A stretch of DNA of 64,000 nt from Longimicrobiales bacterium. Its GTDB lineage: Bacteria > Gemmatimonadota > Gemmatimonadetes > Longimicrobiales > Gaopeijiaceae. The DNA lies in NCBI GenBank assembly GCA_965203485.1, contig OZ241892.1:3200001-3264000 (forward strand), written 5' to 3'. Made by a program: the position numbers and the translations under genes. Below are positions 8,100-57,757 of this stretch, in pieces; the stretch's first letter is position 1, and each line of letters opens with the position of its first letter. The notes beneath the pieces are model-generated. The model did not search any database. It saw only the letters and a program-made list of their open reading frames with translations, and was not told the origin of the DNA.

Positions 8100-8908
8100 C
8101 GCTTCCCCTCTCCGTTGACGGCGGCGCGCGCTTGGGCGCGACGGGCCTGCAGCTCCCGCGCCAAGGCCACGTACGCTTGCGCACCGGCCGATTCCGGATC
8201 GTAGTCGAGCACGGACTTGCCGAAGGACGGCGCTTCGGCGATGCTCACGTTGCGCGGGATCATGGTCCGAAACACATCGAAGTCCTCCCTTCCCCGGGCA
8301 TGGCCCTTCGCGTCGGCGACGATCTGGCGGGCCAGCCTCAGCCGACTGTCGTGCATCGTCAGCAGCACCCCTTCGATCTCCAAGCCCGGGTTCAGGCGCC
8401 GGCGCACCAGCTCGACCGTGCTCATGAGCTGAGCCACTCCTTCAAGAGCATAGTACTCGCATTGGATGGGGACGATGAGCGAGTCGGCGGCCGCGAAGGC
8501 GTTGAGAGTAAGGAGGCCCAGGGAGGGCGGACAGTCCACTAGCACGAACGCGTAGTCGCCCGTGACGGGGCCGAGCGCCCCTCGCAAGATCGTTTCCCGG
8601 TCGCGCACGCCGACGAGTTCGAGCTCGGCCCCGACCAAGTCGCGGTTCGCGGGAACCACTTCCAAGTTGGCGTCCGGGGCCGCTCGGTGTATCGCGCGAA
8701 AGACGGGCAGGCCGCGAATCAGCACGTCGTAGGTGGATGGCCGGCGGTTCCTGTCGACGATTCCCAAGCCGCTCGACGCGTTCCCCTGCGGATCGTTGTC
8801 CACCAGCAACACGCGCGCGCCCTCCTTGGCGAGAGCGGCACTCAGGTTGACGGCGGTCGTCGTCTTGCCGACCCCGCCCTTCTGGTTGGCGACCGCGATG
8901 ATGCGCAA
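8096..8908 (-). CDS. parA: Chromosome partitioning ATPase ParA/Soj
   Basis: TTG start; NQKGGVGKTT deviant Walker A, DPQGNAS, DCPPSLG, QCEYYALEG. Confidence 0.95.
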   Translation of the reverse strand: MRIIAVANQKGGVGKTTTAVNLSAALAKEGARVLLVDNDPQGNASSGLGIVDRNRRPSTYDVLIRGLPVFRAIHRAAPDANLEVVPANRDLVGAELELVGVRDRETILRGALGPVTGDYAFVLVDCPPSLGLLTLNAFAAADSLIVPIQCEYYALEGVAQLMSTVELVRRRLNPGLEIEGVLLTMHDSRLRLARQIVADAKGHARGREDFDVFRTMIPRNVSIAEAPSFGKSVLDYDPESAGAQAYVALARELQARRAQARAAVNGEGKR

Positions 8909-9456
8909 CGAGCCTGCCCAGCGATTGGAGAATCCCAGATGAAGCCGGCGGCGTCCCCTGCCCCACCGGCGCCAGTGCATCGAAAGGTATTGCGGGTTGG
9001 CCTGCCCCGGCCAACTCGGCGGGCGGCGAGATGCGGCTACGCTCGCGGTCACGGCGGCCGGCGTTGGTTCGTTGGCCGACGCACGTAGTCGTTGGACGCC
9101 CAGCGCGTCCCCCTGCAGCTCGAAGGCCAGTTCTCCGGTTGTGCCTGCGGGCCGCCCGCGTCCCAAGTCGGCGTTCGTGAGGTCTTGGAGCGCCTACGGT
9201 CCAGGTTGGGGGAACCGGGGGGCATGTTGCAACTGGCCGGACGGCGCCGCCTGCGTTTGGCGACTGGCGCCCGGTCGGGCTTCGGACCGGTGCGCGCCGA
9301 TGGGCCGTCTTCAAGGTGCGATCCGCCCGGCCCCAAGTCCGCCCCGTCCGCCGATCGACACGGCGTTGCGATCGCTCGACCCAACGACATGGCCGGCCCA
9401 GCCCCCCCGCTCTCTCCAGTAGTCCCGCCGACACGTCAGTCAAGCCGCGCCGTCGC

Positions 9457-9472
9457 TGTTTCACGTGAAACA
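9457..9472. promoter_or_regulatory. parS centromere site
   Basis: Perfect palindrome TGTTTCACGTGAAACA matching the parS consensus, next to parAB. Confidence 0.95.
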
Positions 9473-9579
9473 GTTCCCTTCTGCGCCCCCAAGCGTCCAG
9501 CGAAGGCGGCTGCTCGTTCTTCGTTCATAAGAATCATGCTGTTGCGCGAGCACGCACGTGCGTGGCGTTGCGGACCTTG

Positions 9580-9898
9580 TCACGTGATCCTTCCTTGGAA
9601 ACCTGCGGCAGGCCCTTCAGGCGCTTGGGTCACTCCGCCAAGCCCCCGTGCGATATCCGGGACGAGCGAATCGTCCGCGGCTTCGGAATCGACGCCGGCG
9701 TCCGGCCCTGCCGACGCAAACGCGCGAAGCTCGTCCGCCGTCTCCGTCCCGAACTTGCCCGCGGCGAAGCGAACGGCGAACTCCGCCCGCCCACAGCTCG
9801 CGTCTACGGGCCTCTCCTTCGAGCCCGCCCAGCTTGAGCCCCTCGTCCCGGCCCTCTTGGCGGGCATACTCGAACTCTTCAGCGATTGGCCAGGACAT
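9580..9898 (-). pseudogene. Frameshifted C-terminal tail of an Rpn/YhgA-like (PD-(D/E)XK) protein
   Basis: MSWPIAEEFEYARQEGRDEGLKLGGLEGEA in one frame continues as GRAEFAVRFAAGKFGTETADELRA in another; resembles Rpn EG-repeat tails. Confidence 0.45.
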
Positions 9899-10080
9899 AT
9901 ATGTGCGCTCCGCTCTCGGATCTCTCGACTCGTTCGACGTCGTTTCGCGCGGCGTCCGGGATTGCGGCAACGGCGGGCAACGCCTCTTCCGCCGCCACGG
10001 CGAAGCCGTCCCGCATGTCGGCATGGCTCGCAGTCACCGCGACGCACGCCCACACCGAAGGCGGAAGGCCGGCGGTTGCC

Positions 10081-10140
10081 GTCGACGGCAGTCGTCGTCT
10101 TTGCCGATGCGCTATGGTTGGTCACCGCGACGGCGCGCAT
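10081..10140 (-). pseudogene. Degenerate 5' fragment of a parA-like gene
   Basis: MRAVAVTNHSASAKTTTAVD versus resident ParA LRIIAVANQKGGVGKTTTAVN; similarity also visible at DNA level. Confidence 0.55.
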
Positions 10141-10336
10141 CAAGTCGGCACAAGCGCCGACGGGTCAGGTCGCGAACCAACCCCCGGGCCGAGTCTTGCG
10201 GCGTCCCTTGACTGGCACGGCCTCGATCAAGCCGACCTTGCCCTACCAGGCGACATCACCGAAAGGGAAGGCCGCGAGCCCCCCTGGGAGCGGCAAGCCG
10301 CATCGGCCCGCATATCGGGGACCCCTTGGTGCTGGA

Positions 10337-10352
10337 TGTTTCACGTGAAACA
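10337..10352. promoter_or_regulatory. parS centromere site
   Basis: Second perfect TGTTTCACGTGAAACA. Confidence 0.95.
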
Positions 10353-10521
10353 CGCCTCTGCACACCTTCCCGCAAGAAAGAAGGGAACTCGGCCCAGGCG
10401 GTCGGCCTCGCGGACCACGATCCCCTTCGCCGCGCCGCAGATCGCTGCGGCCACCACGGCGCGCCACGCAGCCCGTTGCACGCCGCGAGGGCGCCGGGCC
10501 GGGCAAACCGCCGGGCGCCAG

Positions 10522-10866
10522 TTAACGGGCGGGCGAGGCATGCAGGAGACTCGTGGGCGATGCGGTCGTGCTGGAGCGCAAGACGGCCAGGCCACCGGCG
10601 AATGACGGGTCAAGCTCTTCAGAAATGACATCGGCCTTGAGCCAACGGCCTTCATCTGCGGTTCCTCCGCCACGTTCCCTTGCCCCAGTTGGGCGGCGGG
10701 GATGAGTAGCGAAGGCGACGAGGGCTAGAACCAGGGCCACCACGAACACGGCCTTCATCCCGCCTCCCACGCTCCAAATGGCCAGCAGGGTCATCCCCAA
10801 GAGGCCAGCCTTCACAACGGGCTTGTGCTCGTACAGCCACGCGCGCCAACGTCTAGTGGCCCCCAT
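10522..10866 (-). CDS. Small hypothetical membrane protein (2 TM)
   Basis: MGATRRWRAWLYEHKPVV followed by two hydrophobic segments. Confidence 0.45.
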   Translation of the reverse strand: MGATRRWRAWLYEHKPVVKAGLLGMTLLAIWSVGGGMKAVFVVALVLALVAFATHPRRPTGARERGGGTADEGRWLKADVISEELDPSFAGGLAVLRSSTTASPTSLLHASPAR

Positions 10867-11090
10867 CAGCTGGCCTCCAAGCGGCTGATGGCCGTCCTGC
10901 ACGTGGGGAGTAGATCGGCAACGTCCATGCGGTTCATGGCCAACGTCACGTTGGAGCCCAGTACCGAGTCCCCTGCGTCCTTGGCGGCCAGAGTAGCGTT
11001 ATGGCGCGAACTTGGCGGCCTTGCGGTAGGACATTCCGGCCCGAAGGTGCTTGGCCAGCACTCCCTTTGGGGCGGTCGGCCCGCGCACCG

Positions 11091-11858
11091 TCATTCACTA
11101 AGCTTCTTGCTTCGTGCCTTCAAGGAGAACACGAGGTACTCCGGAAACCGATCAAACCAATCGATCCACCAACGCGAATCGCACATCCAATTCGGAGGTG
11201 GAGTCCTTTCCATGTGCGCCCAGGCGCACACGGGCCCGCGCTTGGCAACGATGATGCTGTAGCCCGTCTGTTCGACGATCTCCTCAGGCGCGCTTCCCGC
11301 AATGACCCCGATCCGCTCAAGCAACTCGGGCGTCCGCAACGCTCCGGCGAGGGCGATCGCCGGCAACAACGCGTCCGGGAACCCGACCGACCGGTGCTCG
11401 CCGGCCGACATGTAGCCTTCCGGCGGCCCGTCGATATGAAGCGAGGCCGCTTCCCCAGGTCCTTCGCGTAAGACGTCGAGCCGTGCGTCGAAACGATGCT
11501 GGCCAGCACCGACAGTGCATCGCCGGCCTCGGTCCCGGTCGCCCGCGGCGACATGGCAACATCGAGCAGGGTCGCAACGCTTCGATCATACCCTCGATCA
11601 AGGCCGGCGATCTCTTCTTCAGCTCCACCGACAGGGCCGCCGTGACGCCGACATGCCAGTTGGCGTCGCCGCTCGTCGTCAGCAACCCTATAACCCTTCG
11701 CTCAGCTTCCGCATCCCCAGCCCTGAGCTTCTCAATTGTTCCCTGCTCCGCCTTCCACAGGTCGTGGATTCCTTGGCTGACGCCTCCCGCTCTTGCGACG
11801 ACGCCGACCCGGCAACCGTCAAGAAGACGGCGGCCCAAGTCCACAATAGGGCCTTCAT
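11091..11858 (-). pseudogene. Decayed copy of the 319-aa secreted helical protein at 12288-13247
   Basis: Starts MKALLWTWAAVF versus MKASLWTWAAVS; homologous pieces lie in different frames with an internal deletion of about 190 bp; ends DWFDRFPEYLVFSLKARSKK. Confidence 0.85.
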
Positions 11859-12011
11859 GCCCTTCTCCTTTCGCCTCCGTTACCGGGCGAAGTGAAAATG
11901 GCGATCGTCCTTGTACTTGTCCCACGGTTGCAGATCAAACCTGCCACCCAGCAACGCTAGTTCGAAGTATACGTCTTTGAGTTCCGCCTGCTGAGCCGGG
12001 GTCATCCGAGC

Positions 12012-12287
12012 TTAAGGTATCCCAGCCGCGCCGATAATCGCTCTGGTCGAAATGTCCACCGCCCTGCCCTCCATGTGATAGGAGCTTCGCGACGCGCCAG
12101 CGATCGACGCGTTTCCGTGCGGGCACCGGTATCCGCTGGTCAACACGAGGCCCGCGGAGCAGCCCTTCGCAATCGGCAACGCGGACCGGCCCCACTTCGC
12201 CCGCAGGTCCTCGATGCCGCTCTTCAGCCTCTGCTGGACCGCGGTCGACATCCACAATGAGGTCTTCGCGAAGGCGAGGCTTGCCAC
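12012..12287 (-). pseudogene. Orphan C-terminal M15 peptidase catalytic fragment
   Basis: LTSGYRCPHGN...SYHMEGRAVDI is intact, but there is no N-terminus and a premature TAA replaces the TAC of the other copy. Confidence 0.75.
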
Positions 12288-13247
12288 TTACTCGCCGGGC
12301 CTCTTGCTTCGCGCCTTCAAGGAGTACTCGCGCCAGTCCGGGAAGCGATCGAACCAGTCGGTCCACGTACGCGAATCGCACATCCAGCTCGGGGGCGAAG
12401 TTCCTTCCAGGTGCGCACGGGCGCACGGGGGCCCGTACTCGGTGATGATTACGCTGTAGCCGGTTCGTTCCACGATCTGCTCGGGCGTGCTCGCCGCAAT
12501 GGCCTCGATTCGCTCCACCAGCTCGGGCGTCCGCAGCGCTCCGGCGAGCGCAATCGCCGTCACCAGCGCATCCGGAAATCCTCCCGACCGGTGCTCGCCG
12601 GCCGACATGTAGCCCTCCGGTGGCCCGTCGAGGTGAAGCACGGCGGCTTCGCGCAAGTCCTGCGCGTAAGACCCAGGGCCGTGCGTCGAAACGATGCTGG
12701 CCAACACCGACAGCGCATTGCGGGCCTCGAAGCCGGTCGCTTCCGGCGACAGGGCGACATCGAGCAGGTGCGGCACGGCCTGCAACCCGAACTCGTAGAG
12801 CACCGCCGCCGACAAGCCTGCGGCGCGCCACGCCAGCGGAGGCAGGATCGCCGGGTCGCCCGTCAGCAAGAGTTGGTGGGCAAGATAGCTCTGCGTCTCT
12901 CCGCGGCTCGCGGTTCCCAAGTCGGCCGCGTATCGGCGGGTGCTCCACTCCACGCCTCGCCGCAATGCCTCGATCATGCCCGCGATCAAGGCCGGCGATC
13001 TCTGCTCCGGCGCCACCGCTAGGGCCGCCGCCACGCCGACGTGCCAACTCGCGTCACCGCCCGTCGTCAGCAGGTCGACGATCCTTTGCTCCGCGTCGGC
13101 GTCGCCGGCCTTCAGCTTCTCGACCGTCGTTCGCTCCGCTCGCCACAGGGCCTCGATTTCCTTGGCCGACGCCTCTCGTTCCTGCGACGCTGTCGGCGTT
13201 ACAACCGTCAATGAGACGGCGGCCCAAGTCCACAATGAAGCCTTCAT
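12288..13247 (-). CDS. Secreted alpha-helical (HEAT-like?) hypothetical protein; candidate peptidase partner or immunity protein
   Basis: Intact 319-aa ORF with GGAGG upstream, signal-peptide-like N-terminus and amphipathic helices. Confidence 0.7.
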   Translation of the reverse strand: MKASLWTWAAVSLTVVTPTASQEREASAKEIEALWRAERTTVEKLKAGDADAEQRIVDLLTTGGDASWHVGVAAALAVAPEQRSPALIAGMIEALRRGVEWSTRRYAADLGTASRGETQSYLAHQLLLTGDPAILPPLAWRAAGLSAAVLYEFGLQAVPHLLDVALSPEATGFEARNALSVLASIVSTHGPGSYAQDLREAAVLHLDGPPEGYMSAGEHRSGGFPDALVTAIALAGALRTPELVERIEAIAASTPEQIVERTGYSVIITEYGPPCARAHLEGTSPPSWMCDSRTWTDWFDRFPDWREYSLKARSKRPGE

Positions 13248-14673: not shown

Positions 14674-16347
14674 TCAGGAGCGCTTGCGGCGTCCTGCCGC
14701 GGGCTTGTCCCCGCCCGCCTTTCGGCGTTCCCTGGCGACCAGCACGGTCTGCGGAATCGTCGCCAAGTTGAAGGTCGTGTAGTAGAGGTTCAGGCCGGAT
14801 GCGAAGCTGAAGAAGATGAACGTCATCATCGCGGGCAGGACCAGCACCATGAACTTCATCTGGGGGTTCGCGCCGGCCCAGCCGGTCGTGAGCTTGATGG
14901 TGAGGAACTGCAGGAGAAGCATGCTTGCGCCGACCAGGATCGGCATCACCCAATAGGGATCGGGCGACGAGAGGTCCGGCAACCAGAGAAACGACACGCC
15001 GCGCAACTGGATGGTGTTGCGGAACACCAAGAACAACGCAAGCAGCATCGGCCACGGAATGAGCAGCGGAACGCACCCCGCCAGCGGATTGACGCCCTGC
15101 TCCTTGTACAGCTTCATCATCTCGCGCTGCTGCGCCTGCGGGTTGTCCTTGTGCTTCTCGCGCAGCTCCTGGACGAGCGGCTGAAGCGTCTGCATCCTGA
15201 TGCTCGACCGCGTGGCCTTCTGGTTGAGCGGCCACAGCACGATGCGCATGAGCAGGCCGATGGCGATCAGCACGAGGCCGTAGCTGAGCGCCAGTCGTTC
15301 GTGAAGCACCGTGATCGCCCACAGCACTACGTTGACGAACGGCCTCACCACCGGACGAAAGACCTTCCAGCCGTAGGGATTGAGTTCCTCCAGCTGGTCG
15401 GCGGCGGCCATCAGGCGTTCCCTCTCGATGGGCCCGGCGTAGACGCTGTACGCATAGGCGCCGTCGTCGGCCACGGGGGCCGACACGTGCACGGTCGCGC
15501 CTCGGAGGCTGGGACTCGCCCACGCGGACCCCAGCTGGGCGCCCTGCTCCGGCAGCACGGCCTTCACGAAGAACTTGCTCTTGAGCGCGGCCCACTGCAG
15601 CGGTCCCTCTATGACGTCCAGCTCGTCGACGCCGCTCAGCGGCCGGGACGTGACGCCCTGGTCCGCGTCGGCGGCCACCATCGCGGCGGCGCGGCGTTCG
15701 TCCGACTCGTTCGCTTCGTTGTACTCGAGCCGACGTCCCAGGTCGACGCGCAACGCCGTCCTTTCCCACTCGGGCAGGCGGCCCTCCACGTCGAAGACGT
15801 AGGAGTCGGCCGCGAACGTGTAGCTGATCTCGCTGAAGAAGGCGCCGTCGGGATGCCGGTACCGAAAGACGAGCGTCGCCGGGGCGTCGCCGGGACGCAG
15901 ACGCAAGCCGTCCGCCGGCTCCACCTCGTGCGCGAACCGGGTCAGGCCGACGGAGTCTCCTCCGAGCAGCCAGGTGCCGCCCAGGCTGCCCTCGGGTTCG
16001 GGCGGCACGAGTTCGACGAGCCCCTCGCGCGCCAAAGAGGCGTACTGCAGCAGCGTCGCCGACCGCAGCGTGGCTCCCCGGTTCGAGAACACGAGGCGAA
16101 AAAGCGGCGTCTCTACATCGACGAGGATCTCTTCGTCCTCCGGGGGCTCCTCCCTCAAGCCGAGAGCGCCCCCGGCGGGCGCGGACGGCGCGGCGCCCCG
16201 CGCGGCGGGTTCGTCTGGCTCGGCCGGTTCGGCCGACGGCGGCGCCGGTGGCGTCTCGGACGGCGGCACCGGCGGAAACAACAGGTTGGTGAGGACGATG
16301 ACGCCCATCATCAGCGTGATCGCCAACAGCAGGCGCTGGACGTTCAC
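14674..16347 (-). CDS. yidC: Membrane protein insertase YidC
   Basis: [30 protein letters not shown] and ASGLNLY motifs; canonical position. Confidence 0.95.
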
Positions 16348-16574
16348 GCCTTCCTCGAACGTTCCGGGACCGGGTCCGGGCCGCAACCGCCCCACGGATG
16401 GCAACGCGCGAGCCGGCGCAGGCCCAGCCACGCGCCCGCCGCCGCGCCGTGGACCTCGACCGCCCGGCGCGCGTACTCCGAGCAACTGGGCACGTACCGG
16501 CAGGCGGGCGGCGCAATGGGCGAAACGCACGCCTGGTACAACCGGATGACGGCGATCATCGCCTTGGCGAGCAC
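16344..16574 (-). CDS. yidD: Membrane protein insertion efficiency factor YidD
   Basis: [10 protein letters not shown] and RCHPWGG..DPVP motifs. Confidence 0.95.
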
Positions 16575-16957
16575 ATCTCCTCCACTGCGTTCACGAAGTC
16601 GGCCTCCAACTGCCGGTACGTCGCCCGGTACGCTTCCCTTCGCACGCGCACGAGGACGTCGGCGGGCGCGCTGGCGGCCTCGATCCGCCCAAGCGCCTTC
16701 GTGCGCGCGATTTCCTTGAGCCGGCGCTTCACGAGGTTCCTGGCGCTGGTGGGGTGGCCCAGCTTCGGCACGATCCAGCCGACGCGGGCGCGCGCCGCCG
16801 CCCCCACCAGGACATAGACGTCCAGCCTAGGGGTTCGTTTGCGCTTGCCTCGCCGGAGGACGGCGCGGATCTCGTGGCCACGCCGAACGCGGACGCTCTT
16901 GGGAAACCGCAAGCGGCGCGCCCCGGAACTCCTCTCCCGGGGGACATCGGCCGTCAG
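16556..16957 (-). CDS. rnpA: Ribonuclease P protein component (start uncertain: CTG 16957 or TTG 16912)
   Basis: [17 protein letters not shown] and [11 protein letters not shown] (RNR-like motif); lies between rpmH and yidD. Confidence 0.9.
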
Positions 16958-17112
16958 CGCGCGTACTTGGAGCCGGTGGCAACGACAAGGGCACGCCGAC
17001 CCTTGCGCCGCCTGCGGTTCAAGACCTTGCGGCCCGCCTTTGTGCTCATCCGGGCCCGGAAGCCGTGCTTGTTGAGCCGCTTCCGGTTTCGGGGCCGGTA
17101 CGTCGGTTTCAT
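16954..17112 (-). CDS. rpmH: 50S ribosomal protein L34
   Basis: [39 protein letters not shown]. Confidence 0.97.
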
Positions 17113-17174
17113 GGCGCGTGCGTGTTCCGCGATGACGCGGGATCGGTGGGATAACGTCGGGGCACAGCCTGGGC

Positions 17175-17204
17175 AAGGTAGCAAGGCTCGGGTCGCCGAG
17201 TCAA
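17175..17204 (-). promoter_or_regulatory. Candidate sigma70 promoter of the rpmH operon
   Basis: Minus strand TTGACT-N18-TACCTT. Confidence 0.55.
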
Positions 17205-17407
17205 CCCTTGGCGAGACGGGCGGCGCACGCGGGGTCGGAGGCGCGGCGCGAGCTGCCGAGCGGCGTTGCCGTGCGCGGGGACCAGGAAGCGCGGTTCCGC
17301 GGGGCGGCGCGGCTCCCGTCCGAGAAGGGCCGGGCGGACCGTGGCGGGCCGACGTTGGCGAGCGGCCCCGCATGGCGGCGCGCCCCGAACGGCTCGAGCG
17401 CGCCCGA

Positions 17408-17437
17408 TTGACTTCCTGGCCCCTCCTCACGTAGCTT
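17408..17437 (+). promoter_or_regulatory. Candidate sigma70 promoter of dnaA
   Basis: TTGACT-N18-TAGCTT, same architecture as the divergent rpmH promoter. Confidence 0.55.
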
Positions 17438-17542
17438 GCCCGCCCGTTTTTCCGTCCCCGGCGCCCGGCAAAGACCGCGACGGGCGGATTCCGACCTCGG
17501 ACGCGGCGCCCCCGAGCAACGGGGGGACGCGCGCAACGGAGC

Positions 17543-18979
17543 ATTCAACTGGGCGCAACCGAACTCTGGGGCCGGATCCTCGAACGAGCCCGGGCTGACG
17601 TCTCCGACCAGAGCTATCGGACGTGGCTCCGCAGCGCCGAAGCGGTGTCGCTCGCCGACGGCGTGCTGTTGGTCCGCGCCGCAAGCCAATTCCATGCCGA
17701 GTGGCTGGAGGACAAGTTCGGCCCGGTCCTCCGCGAGGCGGCGGCGGCGGTTGCCGAGAGCCCGCCATCCATCCGCTTTTCGCACCCGAAGCGCGCCGCG
17801 GGCGACGAGGCGCCCCCGGAGATCGTGGCCGACGACGTCGAGGATCCGGCGTCCTTCTCTTCGCCGGTGCCCGCTCGGCCGGACCGAGCAGGGGCGATGG
17901 ACCGCGGCGCGGCGGATGCGACGGCGACGGCGGGCGACGGCATCAGCGACCGCTACACCTTCGACCGCTTCATCGTGGGCGAGAACAACCGCTTGGCGCA
18001 GGCGGCCAGCCTGGCGGTGGCCGAGCGGCCCGCTCATGCGTACAATCCCCTCTTCCTTTACGGCGACACCGGGCTCGGCAAGACCCACCTCATGCAGGCG
18101 ATCGCCAACCATCTGCGGGCCGCTTCGCCGGGGGCGCGCATCTGCTACATTCCCGCCGAGCAGTTCATGAACGAGATGATCACGGCGATTTCCGAGCGGA
18201 CGAACGAAGCGTTTCGCGCGCGCTATCGCTCGTTCGACCTGCTGCTGGTGGACGACGTCCAGTTCCTGCGCCAGAAGGAGCGCACGCAGGAAGAGTTCTT
18301 CCACACCTTCAACTCGCTCTACGGCGGCGGGCGCCAGATCGTGCTCACCAGCGACCGGCACCCCAAGGAGCTCGTCGGCCTGGAGCCCCGCTTGGTGTCG
18401 CGCTTCGAGTGGGGCCTGGTGGCCGACGTGAGCCCGCCGGACTACGAGACCCGCTTGGCGATCCTGCGAAAGAAGGCGCAGGAGGACGATGTCGCGCTGG
18501 ACCCGGAGGTGCTCGACTTGGTCGCCGACACCTGCCGCTCTTCGGTGCGCGAGCTGGAGGGCGCCATCATCAAGTTGCTCGCGTTCTCGTCGCTCACGCA
18601 GCGCAGGCTCACCCTCGACCTGGCCCGCGCCGCCCTGGCGGGCTTGGGCGAAGCGGAGGCCGCGGAAGCCGCAACGCCCGAAGCGATACGGGATTTGGTC
18701 GCGGAGGCTTGGGGCGTCACCGGCAAGGCGCTGGCATCGAGACGGCGGACCCGCGATCTGGCGGTCCCCCGCCAAGTGGCGATGTTCCTGATCCGCGAGG
18801 TACTCGACGTGCCGTTGCAACGAATCGGCGCCTCCTTCGGCAACCGCGATCACTCGACCGTCATCCACTCCATCCGCAAGGTGCGCCGCCAAATAGAGTC
18901 GGATCCAGCCTTCCGGGCCCAGATCGCCGACGTGCAGGCGCATGTGGAGAGGTCCTCCGCCATGCGGCGAGCCAGTTGA
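17543..18979 (+). CDS. dnaA: Chromosomal replication initiator DnaA (probable non-canonical start)
   Basis: [31 protein letters not shown] and RDHSTVIHS; domain I-like ELWGRIL...YRTWL lies upstream of the first GTG (17645). Confidence 0.97.
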
Positions 18980-45088: not shown

Positions 45089-46075
45089 CTACGGCTCCAA
45101 GCGTTCGAGAGTGTCGATCGGTTGAAGGTTGGGGCGAAAGTCCATGTGGTAGGTCTCCAAGTCGATTCGGTAGAAGCCAACGTCGTGACGACCGTAGCCG
45201 GTCAAGTGCTGCCGCGTGACGAACTCGCCGGAGCGCACGCCAATCCGGCGGCGAAGGTATCTGCCCAGCTCGCTGTTGTCCATGGTCGTGTGAATGGCCT
45301 TGCCGTATTGCTGGGCAACCACGAGAATCAAACTCTGCCCGTCGTCGGTGAGCGCGGTGAAGCGACTGCCTATCGGCGGGAAGAAGGATCGATCCCGCAC
45401 GGGTTTGGGAATAGGAATGTACGCCTGGTTTGGATCTCGGCCATTCCGTTGTCCCCAGTTGAGCCCGGCCTTCAAGTGAGTATTGCCCTTCCGGTCGCCT
45501 TTCGTGGCCAGGAGAGGCAAGGTTGCAGCATCTTCGTAGGCGCCATCCTCAGGGGGCTTCGTGTTCATCAGTTTGACCGACGTTTCCACTCCCGCGTCCG
45601 TGCATGGGATGGATTGGTCGATCAAAGACGCATGGTGTTCCAATGTCGCATCGGGGTCGGCGTCCGCGACGGTCTCCCGCTGAGACGCCCCAAAACCAAG
45701 CATCGTGTAGTTGGCGGATCCGACGAACGCTCGAATCGGCATCCCCCTCTTCTTCCAAATGAATACTTTGGAGTGACAAGGATTTCCTCTTGTCAGATAG
45801 AAACAACTCACCGTTTCGGGGAATCGGCGAACAACGTCGCAAATGCCTTGATGTTGTGCGGCTTCGATGCCTGCCTGGACCATTCCTACGACGACCGTGA
45901 TCTTGGGCAATGTCGCTATGCGTCCTTCCGCCACGCCTTTCTGGAGAGCTTCAAGATGCTGTTCCAGCATGCTTGCGCTCACGTATCCAGAGACAACCAA
46001 GAGCTCGTCGGCTTCCTCGTTCGCCGCCGGGCGCATCAAGACTTCCCGAAAGAGTCCACCTCTCACGATTTGCAT
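45089..46075 (-). CDS. NgoFVII-family restriction endonuclease (PLD nuclease plus C-terminal DNA-binding domain)
   Basis: VSGY, HSKVFIW...GSANYT PLD motif; GLNWGQR..RDPNQAYIPI and NSELGRYLRRR. Confidence 0.85.
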   Translation of the reverse strand: MQIVRGGLFREVLMRPAANEEADELLVVSGYVSASMLEQHLEALQKGVAEGRIATLPKITVVVGMVQAGIEAAQHQGICDVVRRFPETVSCFYLTRGNPCHSKVFIWKKRGMPIRAFVGSANYTMLGFGASQRETVADADPDATLEHHASLIDQSIPCTDAGVETSVKLMNTKPPEDGAYEDAATLPLLATKGDRKGNTHLKAGLNWGQRNGRDPNQAYIPIPKPVRDRSFFPPIGSRFTALTDDGQSLILVVAQQYGKAIHTTMDNSELGRYLRRRIGVRSGEFVTRQHLTGYGRHDVGFYRIDLETYHMDFRPNLQPIDTLERLEP

Positions 46076-47148
46076 GGTGACACCTTTGCTTCTGTCAGGG
46101 TTCGCAGGACTGCTTCGAAGATGACTCGTGCCCCTCTCGGCGGAACGGCCATGCCGATCTGTCTCCGGACCGATTCCCTGCCACCGCAAAACACGAAAGA
46201 ATCGGGAAAGGTTTGCAAACGAGCGCGCTCGCGATTGGTGAGAGCACGGTCTTCCGACCAGTGGTAGACATGCGTGCCGCCGCCGCCGGAGCCCGTAACC
46301 GTGTACGAAGGCTGTTCCGGATCGAGTCGGCGATAGATCTGGCTAATGGTGGCGCCGCTGCGCATTCGGAGCCGCAACCGGGGAGGAAGATCGGCGGTAA
46401 AGGCGTTCTGGCCCGGCTTGATGTGCTTGAGTCGTTCGACGACTCGAGGATGCTGGGCCGTTCTCTGATGATTCTCGGCGTCGGCGGCGATCGGCGGCCG
46501 CTCCAGCGCGTCTCTGCACGACATGCGACGAGAAGACGCCTCCGGGGGACGGAACGCCAGTCCGAGCGACTTGCGAAAGCCTACGACGACAATGCGGTGT
46601 CTCCGTTGGGGAACACCATGCTCTTCGAACCGATACGTGCGAGAACACACGTCGTAGCCCGCGGATTCCAAGTCGTCCAGGATGATCTGATAATCTCGCT
46701 TCGCACCACTGCTTGCCAACCCGCTGACGTTCTCGGCGACGAAGAACAGGGGTTTGAAATGACGCAATGCGCGAACACCCCACTGGTACAATCCCCCGAA
46801 ACGGCCCGCGATGCCATTGCGCTCGCCAACGAGACTGAAGTCGTTGCACGGGAAACCAAACGCCAATCCATCAATAGGCGAAAGTGTGGCGAAATCAAGA
46901 TTTTCGACAGGACAATGCACGACGCCGTGGCGCGGAAATTCCACGTTTTGCTTCAAGGTGTCGCAGGCGTCGCCGTCGATGTCGTTCGCCCACGCGTGCA
47001 CGAAGCCAAAGCCGCCGTGGCGAGCCCGGGCAGCGCCTAGGGCCATGCCCCCGGCGCCGGCGAAAAGCTCGCCGAGTCGGTATTTTCGCTTGAGGACGGC
47101 AGGCGACGAGCGAAGACCGTCAAGTGGGATCATGGCCTGAACGGACAT
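46063..47148 (-). CDS. DNA (cytosine-5) methyltransferase of a type II R-M pair
   Basis: ELFAGAGG, GFPCNDFS, ENV, QRRHR, RERARLQTFP and IGMAVPP. Confidence 0.95.
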   Translation of the reverse strand: MSVQAMIPLDGLRSSPAVLKRKYRLGELFAGAGGMALGAARARHGGFGFVHAWANDIDGDACDTLKQNVEFPRHGVVHCPVENLDFATLSPIDGLAFGFPCNDFSLVGERNGIAGRFGGLYQWGVRALRHFKPLFFVAENVSGLASSGAKRDYQIILDDLESAGYDVCSRTYRFEEHGVPQRRHRIVVVGFRKSLGLAFRPPEASSRRMSCRDALERPPIAADAENHQRTAQHPRVVERLKHIKPGQNAFTADLPPRLRLRMRSGATISQIYRRLDPEQPSYTVTGSGGGGTHVYHWSEDRALTNRERARLQTFPDSFVFCGGRESVRRQIGMAVPPRGARVIFEAVLRTLTEAKVSPCKS

Positions 47149-54396: not shown

Positions 54397-54665
54397 GCTC
54401 TTCAATGTACGAAGATGGCGGGTTGGGCGAAGCCGGCTACCTGGAGTCGGCTTGTCGCGTCGTCGTGGATCGAGACCTGATGACGCGCACGAAGGGAGAA
54501 TCAAGCTCTTCTCGATGGATGTACGCCTTCAGGCCTTGAAGCGCCGCCGTGAGTCGGCAGTCCCTCAGTCGCGACGATCCGCGACCGGATGCGGGAGGCC
54601 GCCGTTGACGAATGCCGTCGTGGCGAAGGGACGATGAGAGAGCCTCGGCGCATGCGGCGTCACGC

Positions 54666-56948
54666 TCACGCGCCGTAACTCAGCAGGTCGCCCCAGAAGG
54701 CGGTGACATCAGGTCGGCTTCGTTCCCGCGTGTCTTCTCCCGCCCGGATGATCTTGGGCGGATGGGACAAGCGAAGCAATGGTTCGTGGGGTCCGGCTCT
54801 CCGTACGGACTGCTTGGTCAACAGACCATGCTTCTCCAGCATGTGCCGGAGATTCGGCCATTGCGGCGATCGCGTTGTGGAGAACTTCGCCAAGTCGCTT
54901 TCAGAGACGTAGAACCGCCGCTCCATCTTGTGAAGAAAGCGCGCGAGCAGTTCAATGCGCTCCTTTTGGGCGGGAGTGTATCTTGGAGCCCTCAAGGCAA
55001 TATCGACGTCCGCGCCCAGCTTTGCCAAGATCGCGCGTACGCTTTCCGGCGCGAAGTAGTCGCCCTTCACGAAGTCCTCGTCGCCGGCTTCCACAACGAT
55101 GCCGTGCACCTGCGTCGTCAGGTCGTCCGAGGCGTGCTCGAATCGCGTCTTCGCCATCGCCACGGACGGAGACGACAGCGTGCATTCTTCGAATGTCGGC
55201 GATTGCATCTGTGCTTGCGTGAAGTCGACTTCCCTAAAATCGCAACGGTAGAAGCGCGGCCGTTCCAAGACGATGTGCCCCAAGTTCTCCTGCCGAAAAT
55301 CCAAGTTGCGCAGCGTCCCGGCCGGCCTCAGTCGCCCTCCCATTGCCAGCAAGCCGGCTACGATCCGACCGCCGTTCTCTCGTGCAACCGCGTGCATCAG
55401 CCCCGGACGCAGGACGTTGCACACCGATTCGATGATCATTGCGCGGGCAGAGTCGTTCGCGCCGGTGGTTCGCGTTGCCTGCCGAACCACCATGTCGTCG
55501 AGCACGGAGCGTTCCAAGAATCGCCGAAGATCGTCCGAACCGTCCTTAAGGCACCGGCGGAGCTTGTCCGCCAAGAAGTAGCCGTAGAGGACTTCATGCT
55601 CAAAGCATAGATCGCGTTTGGTCGCGCCGACCGTCCTCAAGAACGCGTAGCTGGATGCACGATTCTGGATTGCTGCGACAGTTTCTCGAGGCAGATCATA
55701 GTCCTCGGCTAGCAAAGCACCGAGTTCTTGAACCGTGTCGAAGTCCAAGCGGCGGGCCTCTTGCCACCACATTTCCATGGCCAATTCCGTCAGAAACAGT
55801 CGATGCTGTTCGCGGGTCAAGAGAGGCGTTCCTTCTTTGCTGGTCAGCTTGCCGTGCTCTCGGTTGATGAAGGCTTCCACGAGCTGCTCGATCACGGTGT
55901 CGTCCGATGAAATGCTCTCGCCTTCGATGAGCAGGTCTGTAATCCGTGACACGTAGAACGGCTTAGACAGCAGCTCGCGGTCGTCCAGTTCGTCCCGGAG
56001 TTTCTGAAAGTCGGCCAACACGTGCGCACTGTTTGCGGAGTCGTGTCGTCTCGCCGTCGAGGAAACAAATTCCTCGGCTTGGGCGTCGCCCCATGGTTTC
56101 AGATCAACGGTGTCCACGCCGTAGCCGAGACGCCCATCGTACCCGAACCGGCTGGCGTATTCGCGAAAGTTGTTGTAGTCGAAGAAGGAAGACCGCGCCG
56201 AGGCGACGACCACGCCCGATTGCTCGAGCTTCGCCACGAAGGTGGCTAGCGAAGAAAACGCTTCGTCGTATCCGCCGCTGCCGAGCAATTCGTCGAAGCC
56301 GTCTACGACCGGAACCAAGAGGCCGCGCCGAACGAGGGGCACGACGGCGCTGTACGGGAACTTGGCGCGCAGATCGTCGAGTTCCCGTGCCATGGCCTCG
56401 TCCAGGCGCGACAGAGAGCGACCTTGGACGTCGACATAGAAGAACAATGACTTGGCTGTGCCGTTCATGTACTTCTGGGCGCGCAGGAGAGTCATCCGCC
56501 TCAACGCCATCGTCTTTCCCGATCCAGCCTCTCCTCCAACCAACAGAATTCGGGTTTCCTGGAACGGAAGGTCTTCGGTGCTGCGCGCCTCGATGAGCTC
56601 GACCGCTGCGGTCGGCTCCGCTTCGTTGTCGTCGTCGTCGCGGGCGACGGCCAACGTGTCGACATATCCGGGTTCGTTCGGCGTGGTCTTGACCACGAAC
56701 TGCGCGAGCTGTTGGAGATCGGCCAAGTGCGGACTGGCAAGAAACGACTTGTAGTTCATCCGGCTGTCATTACAGACAACGTCCGGCAAGGCTCCGGCAG
56801 CCGACTGCAGCAACGTCACTTCACGTTCGTTTCCCCCTTTCTCCCAAACTAAGATGCCCCCTTCTGCGAGCACGTCCGATCCGGGATCCGAAAATGCCCG
56901 GACGTCTCTCTTGATCTCCGCGATGACGTTGATTGCGCTACCACTCAT
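54666..56948 (-). CDS. NACHT (STAND) NTPase with pentapeptide-like repeats
   Basis: Walker A GEAGSGKT, Walker B VPVVDGFDEL, sensor ASARS, LLSKPFY, FEHEVLYGYFLA; repeats LRNLDFRQENL...FYRCDFREVDFTQAQM. Confidence 0.85.
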   Translation of the reverse strand: MSGSAINVIAEIKRDVRAFSDPGSDVLAEGGILVWEKGGNEREVTLLQSAAGALPDVVCNDSRMNYKSFLASPHLADLQQLAQFVVKTTPNEPGYVDTLAVARDDDDNEAEPTAAVELIEARSTEDLPFQETRILLVGGEAGSGKTMALRRMTLLRAQKYMNGTAKSLFFYVDVQGRSLSRLDEAMARELDDLRAKFPYSAVVPLVRRGLLVPVVDGFDELLGSGGYDEAFSSLATFVAKLEQSGVVVASARSSFFDYNNFREYASRFGYDGRLGYGVDTVDLKPWGDAQAEEFVSSTARRHDSANSAHVLADFQKLRDELDDRELLSKPFYVSRITDLLIEGESISSDDTVIEQLVEAFINREHGKLTSKEGTPLLTREQHRLFLTELAMEMWWQEARRLDFDTVQELGALLAEDYDLPRETVAAIQNRASSYAFLRTVGATKRDLCFEHEVLYGYFLADKLRRCLKDGSDDLRRFLERSVLDDMVVRQATRTTGANDSARAMIIESVCNVLRPGLMHAVARENGGRIVAGLLAMGGRLRPAGTLRNLDFRQENLGHIVLERPRFYRCDFREVDFTQAQMQSPTFEECTLSSPSVAMAKTRFEHASDDLTTQVHGIVVEAGDEDFVKGDYFAPESVRAILAKLGADVDIALRAPRYTPAQKERIELLARFLHKMERRFYVSESDLAKFSTTRSPQWPNLRHMLEKHGLLTKQSVRRAGPHEPLLRLSHPPKIIRAGEDTRERSRPDVTAFWGDLLSYGA

Positions 56949-57642
56949 GGATTCGCACTCCCTCCCGTTCCAGCACTTCCCTGTAGAAGCTTCGCGTCTT
57001 GCGCTTTGTCAAGTGTATTAGCGCGACATCCGATGCTGCAAGCGCCAGCATCGCGGGAATCATGTCGTCGTCGTCGCTTGCAAGCACTACCGCATCTGCC
57101 AGTCTCTCGTAGCGGATGGCCATGGCGTCGGCGGTGAGCAACGTGTCGATCATCTTCTGGGCATATCTCGATGCGACGTCCGGGAGGCGCACCGGACAAG
57201 TGGGCTCGGGGCACCGCCCGGCGCACCAGGACTCGAACGACAAGAGGCTGCAACCATCGGTTCCCAAGGCGCAACGGGGAGCGCGCTCGACCTTCGTCTT
57301 GAGGCGCCCACTGCGCACGAGTCGCACGGACTCTCGAATGGGAACGTTGCGGTCCCATACGGGCGACTCGGCGAGTTCCAGCCGAAACATTTGGCGGCCG
57401 GCGCGCCGCGGCATTTGTTGGATCGCGTTGTTCAACATGCGACGAAGGTCGTGTTGCGTCGCGGGCACGTCGCCGTCCCATCCGCCGTAGAGGCGGGTGG
57501 TCACCTCTCCGGCCGAGGGGACTGTCGCTAGAACCTGCTCCGTCAGTTGCTCCAATCCCAACCGGACATCGCCGAACCGGGGGCGACGGCCGGTGGGCCA
57601 GAGATCGAGATTGAATAGATCGGCGAGGCAGTAGGCGTGCAT
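56938..57642 (-). CDS. NYN/LabA-like PIN-fold ribonuclease with Cys-rich insert
   Basis: ADLFN, RLYGGW, QKMIDTLLTAD and ASDDDDMIP acidic active-site motifs. Confidence 0.8.
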   Translation of the reverse strand: MHAYCLADLFNLDLWPTGRRPRFGDVRLGLEQLTEQVLATVPSAGEVTTRLYGGWDGDVPATQHDLRRMLNNAIQQMPRRAGRQMFRLELAESPVWDRNVPIRESVRLVRSGRLKTKVERAPRCALGTDGCSLLSFESWCAGRCPEPTCPVRLPDVASRYAQKMIDTLLTADAMAIRYERLADAVVLASDDDDMIPAMLALAASDVALIHLTKRKTRSFYREVLEREGVRIHEW

Positions 57643-57757
57643 GTCGGTCGTGGCTCCAAGGTTCAACGCGGAACGATAGCGACTCCTTTGGGACGCCGGA
57701 ATGGCGGAATGCACTCGGCAACGACTTTCGGCCGCCGACGGGCCGGGCCGCATGACG

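Follow-up and report, generated by a model that had tools for sequence, protein, structure and literature searches.

We analyzed a 64,000-nucleotide stretch of the genome of a Longimicrobiales bacterium (contig OZ241892.1, positions 3,200,001 to 3,264,000 of the forward strand; referred to here as the window) and found that a two-gene cassette within it, coding for an NYN-family protein and a NACHT-clade STAND NTPase, is a real conserved unit that is rare and patchily distributed across at least nine phyla. The module is apparently undescribed; it seems to resemble the bNACHT and Avs receptors in its way of working and has no recognizable fused effector. An anti-phage role of some form is very probable. 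The specific proposal that we favor, and to which we give an even chance, is that of a mobile two-gene NLR-like anti-phage system in which the NACHT sensor switches on the separately encoded NYN ribonuclease (RNase).

Two overlapping genes encode an NYN protein and a NACHT NTPase

Both genes, delimited as open reading frames (ORFs), lie on the minus strand. The start of the NYN gene is the ATG at 57642, where its homologs begin too, and the 11-bp overlap with the NACHT gene has the sequence ATGAGTGGTAG. The original prediction, made from the letters of the window, had described these two genes and their overlap between PIG-L and ABC neighbors, all of which was confirmed. The features of the pair are listed below.

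56938-57642, minus strand: NYN (LabA/DUF88-like, PIN-fold) predicted RNase, 234 amino acids; predicted local distance difference test (pLDDT) of the model, 92.3
54666-56948, minus strand: NACHT/STAND NTPase, 760 amino acids, with N-terminal domain, NACHT module, pentapeptide beta-helix and C-terminal alpha/beta domain; model pLDDT, 89.6
56938-56948, minus strand: overlap of NYN stop and NACHT start, 11 bp; suggests translational coupling, and homologous pairs likewise abut or overlap
56679-56948, minus strand: N-terminal NTPase domain, residues ~1-90; helix plus beta-meander with FADPG motif; candidate partner-docking site
55509-56555, minus strand: NACHT module, residues ~132-480; Walker A GEAGSGKT, Walker B VPVVDGFDE, R252 and H451
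55110-55337, minus strand: pentapeptide repeats, residues ~538-613; ~12-13 repeats in ~3 coils; candidate sensor
54669-54986, minus strand: C-terminal NTPase domain, residues ~655-760, delimited from the secondary structure of the model

The folds with the best scores for the model of the 234-residue protein were Marf1 NYN (Z 11.7; root mean square deviation [rmsd] 3.4 over 140 aligned residues) and VPA0982 (Z 11.3; rmsd 3.8 over 145 residues), which ranked above all others. Foldseek gave no NYN match at E<=0.001, and the NYN profile found none among the PDB sequences. The Pfam NYN score of the window protein lay just below the cutoff (23.8 versus 24.2 bits), and the family is annotated on many of its homologs. 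The acidic motifs D8xxN11, K163xxD166 and S189xD191xD193 are present, as is a family motif, RLYGGW, at residues 50 to 55. D8, D166, D191 and D193, mapped to Marf1 residues by motif position rather than by residue-level superposition, were invariant in an alignment of 49 members spanning both subtypes described below, and all three acidic motifs were found in 81 of 88 intact pairs. By every feature testable here, the protein belongs to the NYN family, as proposed earlier on the basis of its fold and motifs, and is predicted to be an RNase. The earlier reading had overlooked an insert with four cysteines (C124, C131, C144 and C149), probably a Zn site. This insert divides the family into two subtypes: of 109 ORF matches, 54 carry it (~235 to 250 amino acids) and 55 lack it (mostly ~190 amino acids, some of them fragments), and the subtypes sort largely by NTPase clade.

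The 760-residue protein matched Pfam NACHT above the cutoff (E 5.5e-9). The nearest solved folds to its model were NLRC4, NOD2 and NLRP3 (Foldseek E 1.3e-17), which align over residues ~65 to 555 and so match the NLR module of nucleotide-binding domain, helical domain and winged-helix extension; against NLRP3 the model gave Z 15.4 and rmsd 4.4 with 362 residues aligned. All 118 full-length NTPases have K145, D216, E220 and R252, and 116 of them have H451. The sequence DGFDE at 216 to 220 fits D[GAS]hDE, described in the accessible text of one report as the Walker B signature of the NACHT clade (Kibby, 10.1101/2022.07.19.500537). By every feature testable here, the protein is a member of the NACHT clade of STAND NTPases. 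The pentapeptide-like repeats noticed earlier scored below the Pfam cutoffs (Pentapeptide_4, E 6.6e-4; other pentapeptide families likewise) and are backed by periodic short strands in the model and by a five-residue periodicity.

Both ends of the NTPase proved to be structured. The original prediction had described an N terminus of ~130 residues in which no effector domain could be seen; it indeed matches no known effector, but it is not featureless, since residues ~1 to 90 form a small domain that members paired with NYN, without NYN and with a fused HEPN-like domain all retain, and residues ~65 to 130 already align with the NACHT modules of NLRs. The C-terminal domain had gone unnoticed, and we read the predicted order of its helices and strands as winged-helix-like, a reading that no database match confirms. 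Neither the N-terminal nor the C-terminal domain gave a significant match among PDB sequences, Pfam or the Atlas; the structure models used for fold searches were of the whole proteins. A fused enzymatic effector likewise had no Pfam, PDB-sequence or Atlas match in either domain, and a cryptic activity may be present there.

The pair is conserved, reciprocal and widespread

We scored 161 loci, comprising 79 from genomes and 79 from metagenomes (drawn from the best 80 of 150 and the best 80 of 118 confirmed matches, respectively) and three from genome searches. After 36 had been left out for a weak match, an uncovered N terminus or less than 900 bases of upstream sequence, 124 remained besides the window. 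An NYN gene lay directly upstream of the NACHT gene in 93 of these and was lacking in 31; among 81 clusters at 70% identity, 66 had NYN throughout, 14 had none and 1 was mixed. The association held in the opposite direction too. NYN-centered searches of three phylum samples, which matched 7/401, 9/401 and 5/401 genomes (each count including the center genome), gave 20 NYN matches outside the window, and a NACHT gene lay directly downstream of all 20, at least 5 of which were already known from the NACHT searches and 1 of which had both genes degraded. The conserved adjacency proposed as a check on the pairing was thus observed from both sides. As regards the suggestion of a split sensor-effector pair, the conserved and reciprocal adjacency speaks for it, but the 31 loci without NYN show that the second gene is not obligate.

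Among 106 paired loci, both genes were intact in 88; a broken NYN gene stood beside an intact NACHT gene in two (L057 and L071), and the reverse, an intact NYN gene beside a possibly defective NACHT gene, occurred once, in the divergent member L145. Pairwise identities of the two partners were correlated (Pearson 0.91, Spearman 0.58), with the same nearest neighbor in 53 of 88 pairs, a correlation that shared inheritance alone would also give. Pairs occur in nine phyla labeled on the tree and in Spirochaetia, Binatia and Planctomycetaceae records; Methylorubrum rhodinum DSM 2163, a strain available in culture, has an intact pair (L066). Among named relatives, those nearest to the NTPase come from Longimicrobiales (Gemmatimonadota) records, and of 61 relatives, with the window's own genome included, 3 contain the NTPase. 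In a library clustered at 50%, the NTPase profile matched 846 representatives at E<=1e-30, not all of which need be family members.

No NYN-NACHT fusion was found among 8000 candidates in a search for longer NYN proteins, which was a weak search. Two apparent fusions were rejected as probable frameshifts: the C-terminal NYN residues of L076 are found in a different frame, and L068 has a truncated NACHT gene. One locus (L063) carries two pairs of different subtype on opposite strands within 9 kb (9346-12307 and 14860-17852), two genomes (G469 and G481) contain three family NTPases each, and a degraded pair (L165, in G369) runs into a long T/C-rich low-complexity stretch that is possibly an assembly artifact.

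A branch of the NTPase family lacks NYN

Twenty-five of the 118 full-length NTPases group together and have no NYN partner (support 0.98 with FastTree; SH-aLRT 92 in a quick IQ-TREE run with 60 rows), and among the other 93 loci on the tree only L030 and L038 lack it. A midpoint-rooted tree suggested a simple split into two clades, a picture that we toned down: rooted with an outgroup (L150, L152 and L155), the tree places the NYN-less clade within clades that have NYN, on a root that is long and unreliable. The three outgroup sequences are remote NACHT proteins that carry an NA-iREase2 domain at the N terminus; one of them also has a pentapeptide match. A broad NYN profile matched 2 of 2 positive controls and none of 15 NYN-less genomes. 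NYN is not, then, the obligate effector of this NACHT family.

Five proteins (L141, L142, L144, L147 and L221), three from the 25-member group and one from a viral contig, carry a fused N-terminal domain of ~240 residues or more. In all five, R125-x4-H130, D38 and E41 are invariant; the HEPN motif has been given as Rx4-6H with an upstream acidic residue in the accessible text of its description (PMC3710099). Pfam HEPN did not match in the four that were scanned. Judged by these residues, the fused domain is likely HEPN-like and from an unrecognized HEPN subfamily.

The neighbors of the 22 NYN-less members without such an extension were varied. Eight adjoin a Schlafen/AlbA_2-HATPase gene, two in tandem with a 4-bp overlap and six divergently at ~40 bp, and four (L054, L055, L107 and L112) follow a JAB-ThiF gene and two small upstream genes, which could be ubiquitin-like machinery and possibly a conjugation operon. 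One follows GmrSD-HNH genes, and the rest have no recurrent partner, several having only housekeeping neighbors. Schlafen was not established as a dedicated partner, as the same protein family also occurs near the NYN-paired loci L007, L042 and L061. A Schlafen/AlbA_2-HATPase-HTH gene stands head-to-head with the NYN-less NACHT gene, with ~40 bp between the starts, in L036, L041, L048, L053, L062, L100 and L103 (~8510-9970 in genome loci), and three of the four JAB-ThiF loci also lie beside an integrase-like gene.

The cassette is accessory cargo at a site that is empty in a congener

The cassette lies within a stretch of lower GC (guanine plus cytosine) content, as originally noted:

54505-57757, no strand assigned: low-GC accessory insert between the ABC permease and the PIG-L gene; site empty in the same-genus genome G002

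Its GC content is 60.8% versus 69.3% for the genome, a value this low being found in 3.1% of 1185 3-kb genome windows; the flanks have 68 to 76%, and the 60-mer at 55801 has 58.3%. The PIG-L gene stands on one side and the ABC permease gene on the other. In G002, the PIG-L gene directly follows the ABC permease gene, leaving the site empty; in a second genome (G001), the permease gene is followed by a DNA methyltransferase gene and then by unrelated genes. We conclude that the NYN-NACHT cassette is accessory cargo, present as one copy of each gene in this genome, and the position behind the ABC permease may be a cargo site, given the methyltransferase gene in G001. That enzyme (L193:15375-16568) has 397 amino acids, with an N-terminal region of ~140 residues without assigned family. 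The flanks of the cassette and the empty site had no repeat in common, and promoter and terminator scans gave results at chance level. DNA contigs identical to the stretch were found, one of them running across all of it; all come from one study that is possibly the source itself, and RNA records covering the stretch were not listed.

Searches of plasmid and phage records gave no match; in IMG/VR there was none with a single protein as query and one with an alignment, of the fused type. From its patchy distribution and low GC content, the pair is apparently mobile and horizontally spread. Elsewhere in the window (45089-47148, minus strand) lies a type II restriction-modification pair, a C5 cytosine methyltransferase with an NgoFVII-like PLD endonuclease, which also has lower GC content and has a 72%-identical stretch in G002. 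The window's genome is rich in defense genes, including SspC/SspD, tandem type IIG-like restriction genes and Menshen NsnB/NsnC (20 random 9-kb samples; L172, L176 and L180).

Proposed mechanism and alternatives

Bacterial NACHT proteins have been reported, in the accessible text, to be anti-phage and to need Walker A (Kibby, 10.1101/2022.07.19.500537). From the genes, motifs, folds and linkage described above, we infer a scheme of sensing, binding, RNA cleavage and protection. The resting NACHT protein would be autoinhibited until a phage product or a perturbed host factor binds its pentapeptide and C-terminal region. Nucleotide exchange would then lead to oligomerization, as in NLRs, and the clustered N-terminal domains would bring in and activate the NYN RNase, made as a protein of its own; this RNase would cut cellular or phage RNA and so abort the infection. 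NYN would fill the role held in the related branch by the fused N-terminal HEPN-like RNase. Prediction of a NACHT-NYN complex scored 0.29 against a mark of 0.32, which speaks neither for nor against binding.

Several observations weigh against this proposal. The 22 full-length NACHT proteins with neither NYN nor N-terminal extension keep intact motifs, and this intact clade, together with the lack of NYN in 15/15 NYN-less genomes, shows that the NTPase can be retained without the NYN effector. A purified NYN protein cleaved RNA in vitro according to the accessible part of one report (10.1101/2024.04.08.588522), so that an activator is perhaps unneeded. The genomic context speaks partly for and partly against the proposal, and the window copy itself has housekeeping neighbors. 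We examined the two nearest genes per side (genes called by a rough script; PADLOC, E<=1e-20) in the first 32 of 40 picked NYN-paired genome loci, with distant regions of the 26 genomes having long contigs as matched controls. PADLOC matches occurred in 22 of 128 flanking genes, in 16 of the 32 loci, versus 17 of 112 in random regions of the window's own genome, which is no enrichment (p 0.73). Against the matched controls, 19 of 104 flanking genes matched versus 7 of 103 (p 0.02), whereas per locus the comparison was 13/26 versus 7/26 (p 0.15). Core genes of restriction, BREX or DISARM systems flanked 11 of 26 loci versus 1 of 26 controls (p 0.002 by Fisher's test; the tallies for the matched comparison were made by hand), a category chosen after seeing the data in loci that, where kin, are not independent. 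The defense-island enrichment proposed as a check in the original prediction appears against matched regions, most clearly in the post hoc restriction-type category, and is absent against the window's own genome. There is a signal, if a moderate one, and generic accessory DNA would account for it too.

A guard or toxin-antitoxin logic seems rather unlikely: here a constitutively active NYN would be bound and silenced by resting NACHT and released upon phage sensing, and the pair would be addictive. The tight coupling of the genes suits such a logic, as do the failure to find NYN without NACHT in the 20 NYN matches and the observation that in NYN-paired branches NACHT outlives NYN, which was lost in L030 and L038 and broken in L057 and L071, with the reverse seen once, in L145. 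The losses and breaks of NYN beside an intact NACHT gene, together with the NYN-less clade, point to a one-way dependence. However, the same asymmetry would be expected if NYN were useless without its activator, and the count is biased in that most loci were found by way of their NACHT gene. Activation by oligomerization, an established mode of effector activation for NLRs, would agree better with the relatives that carry a fused HEPN-like domain. Improbable, in our view, is a NACHT protein that suffices by itself, as bNACHT01 does without an enzymatic effector, and that works by means of one of its terminal domains (N or C) or of a host factor, with NYN as an accessory or second layer. The supported NYN-less clade with intact motifs, several members of which lie amid housekeeping genes only, is consistent with this, and bNACHT01 is a protective single gene whose clade has no fused effectors in the accessible text (Kibby, 10.1101/2022.07.19.500537). 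Nevertheless, only 2 of 93 full-length loci of the NYN branches lack NYN, and its retention in at least nine phyla, with conserved catalytic residues, exceeds what a passenger would show.

Slightly less probable again is a role outside defense, as a stress-responsive RNA-processing or dormancy module or as a selfish cassette gathering in variable regions. In the accessible text of one survey, many STAND clades are not defense associated, with 198 of 589 classed as defense (PMC13581612), and a CRISPR-linked NYN is described, in the text available, as an RNA-processing enzyme (10.1101/2024.04.08.588522); moreover, 16 of the 32 loci examined had no PADLOC match within two genes. Such a role is countered by the patchy, horizontally spread low-GC cargo, the restriction-type neighbors, the swapping of RNase-type partners and the NLR fold. 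Beyond the two-gene sensor-RNase system that we favor, it is conceivable, albeit doubtful, that the N-terminal domain is an exchangeable docking hub, by which one sensor chassis recruits a free NYN, a fused HEPN-like or possibly a Schlafen RNase. This would make a protease-free "RNase inflammasome," with NYN as phage defense effector and the short pentapeptide beta-helix as sensor.

Relation to known systems

The pairing had been suspected not to be a named system, and the searches agree with this. In PADLOC-DB 2.0 and NCBIfam 20.0, NYN had no matches and NACHT had only weak P-loop and pentapeptide fragments (e.g., HalA, 25.6 versus 250 bits); eight further homologous proteins had no family-level match in either. 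Full-text literature searches returned no description of the NYN-NACHT pairing, though the family may stand unnamed in supplementary tables or subscription papers. Type II toxin-antitoxin systems of the VapBC kind couple a small antitoxin gene to a PIN toxin; the pair does not fit this description, the only recurrent coupled gene here being that of the 760-residue NTPase.

One close comparison is with the bNACHT proteins, as they are described in the accessible text (Kibby, 10.1101/2022.07.19.500537). These share the D[GAS]hDE NACHT module, and their "hybrid" sensor type corresponds to the C-terminal pentapeptide repeats followed by a small domain at the end of the chain. Their listed RNase effectors include HEPN and Schlafen. 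Whereas bNACHT effectors are fused, the RNase here has an NYN/PIN fold and is encoded by a separate upstream gene; "PIN" had no whole-word match in the text available, and the supplementary discussion lists no NYN effector. The Avs/AVAST receptors, in the portion of their description available (PMC13581612), are likewise STAND NTPases with predicted C-terminal sensing of phage proteins and oligomerization, as predicted here, but their clustered sensors have at least 400 residues and are mostly TPR, WD40 or FGE-sulfatase-like, versus ~220 residues based on pentapeptides here. NYN, PIN and pentapeptide had no matches in the accessible main text and seven supplements of that report.

Other relatives share single elements with the pair. 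In the CARD-NLR gasdermin systems, as far as the accessible text goes (PMC10312443), an NLR-like sensor with an unannotated conserved N-terminal domain controls separate, exchangeable effectors, as may be the case here; however, those operons have at least three genes and CARD-containing proteases, whereas ours would employ an RNase, with two genes and no protease. PIN RNases and a NACHT NTPase are each needed for defense in DS-3, DS-5 and DS-8 of DefensePredictor, but in the text available DS-3 is one protein, the DS-5 partner is not an NTPase and DS-8 has a fused metallophosphatase (PMC13092281); one homolog matched the DS-8 model at 20.5 bits versus a cutoff of 790. The NYN protein shares its fold and acidic triad pattern with the ribonucleases Marf1 NYN, VPA0982 and CRISPR-associated NYN and differs from them in the RLYGGW motif, the four-cysteine insert of one subtype and the coupling to a NACHT gene.

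The NYN-NACHT pair combines known parts in a new way, and the field is a crowded one. In the bacterial NLRs compared, the effector is in the same chain or the signal is passed via proteases. The natural series of NYN-paired, NYN-less and HEPN-like-fused members permits clean swap comparisons. If the proposed mechanism is true, NYN would join the list of effectors, pentapeptide repeats would gain a test case as sensors, and a two-gene NLR with a free RNase would show in minimal form how an effector is recruited in trans.

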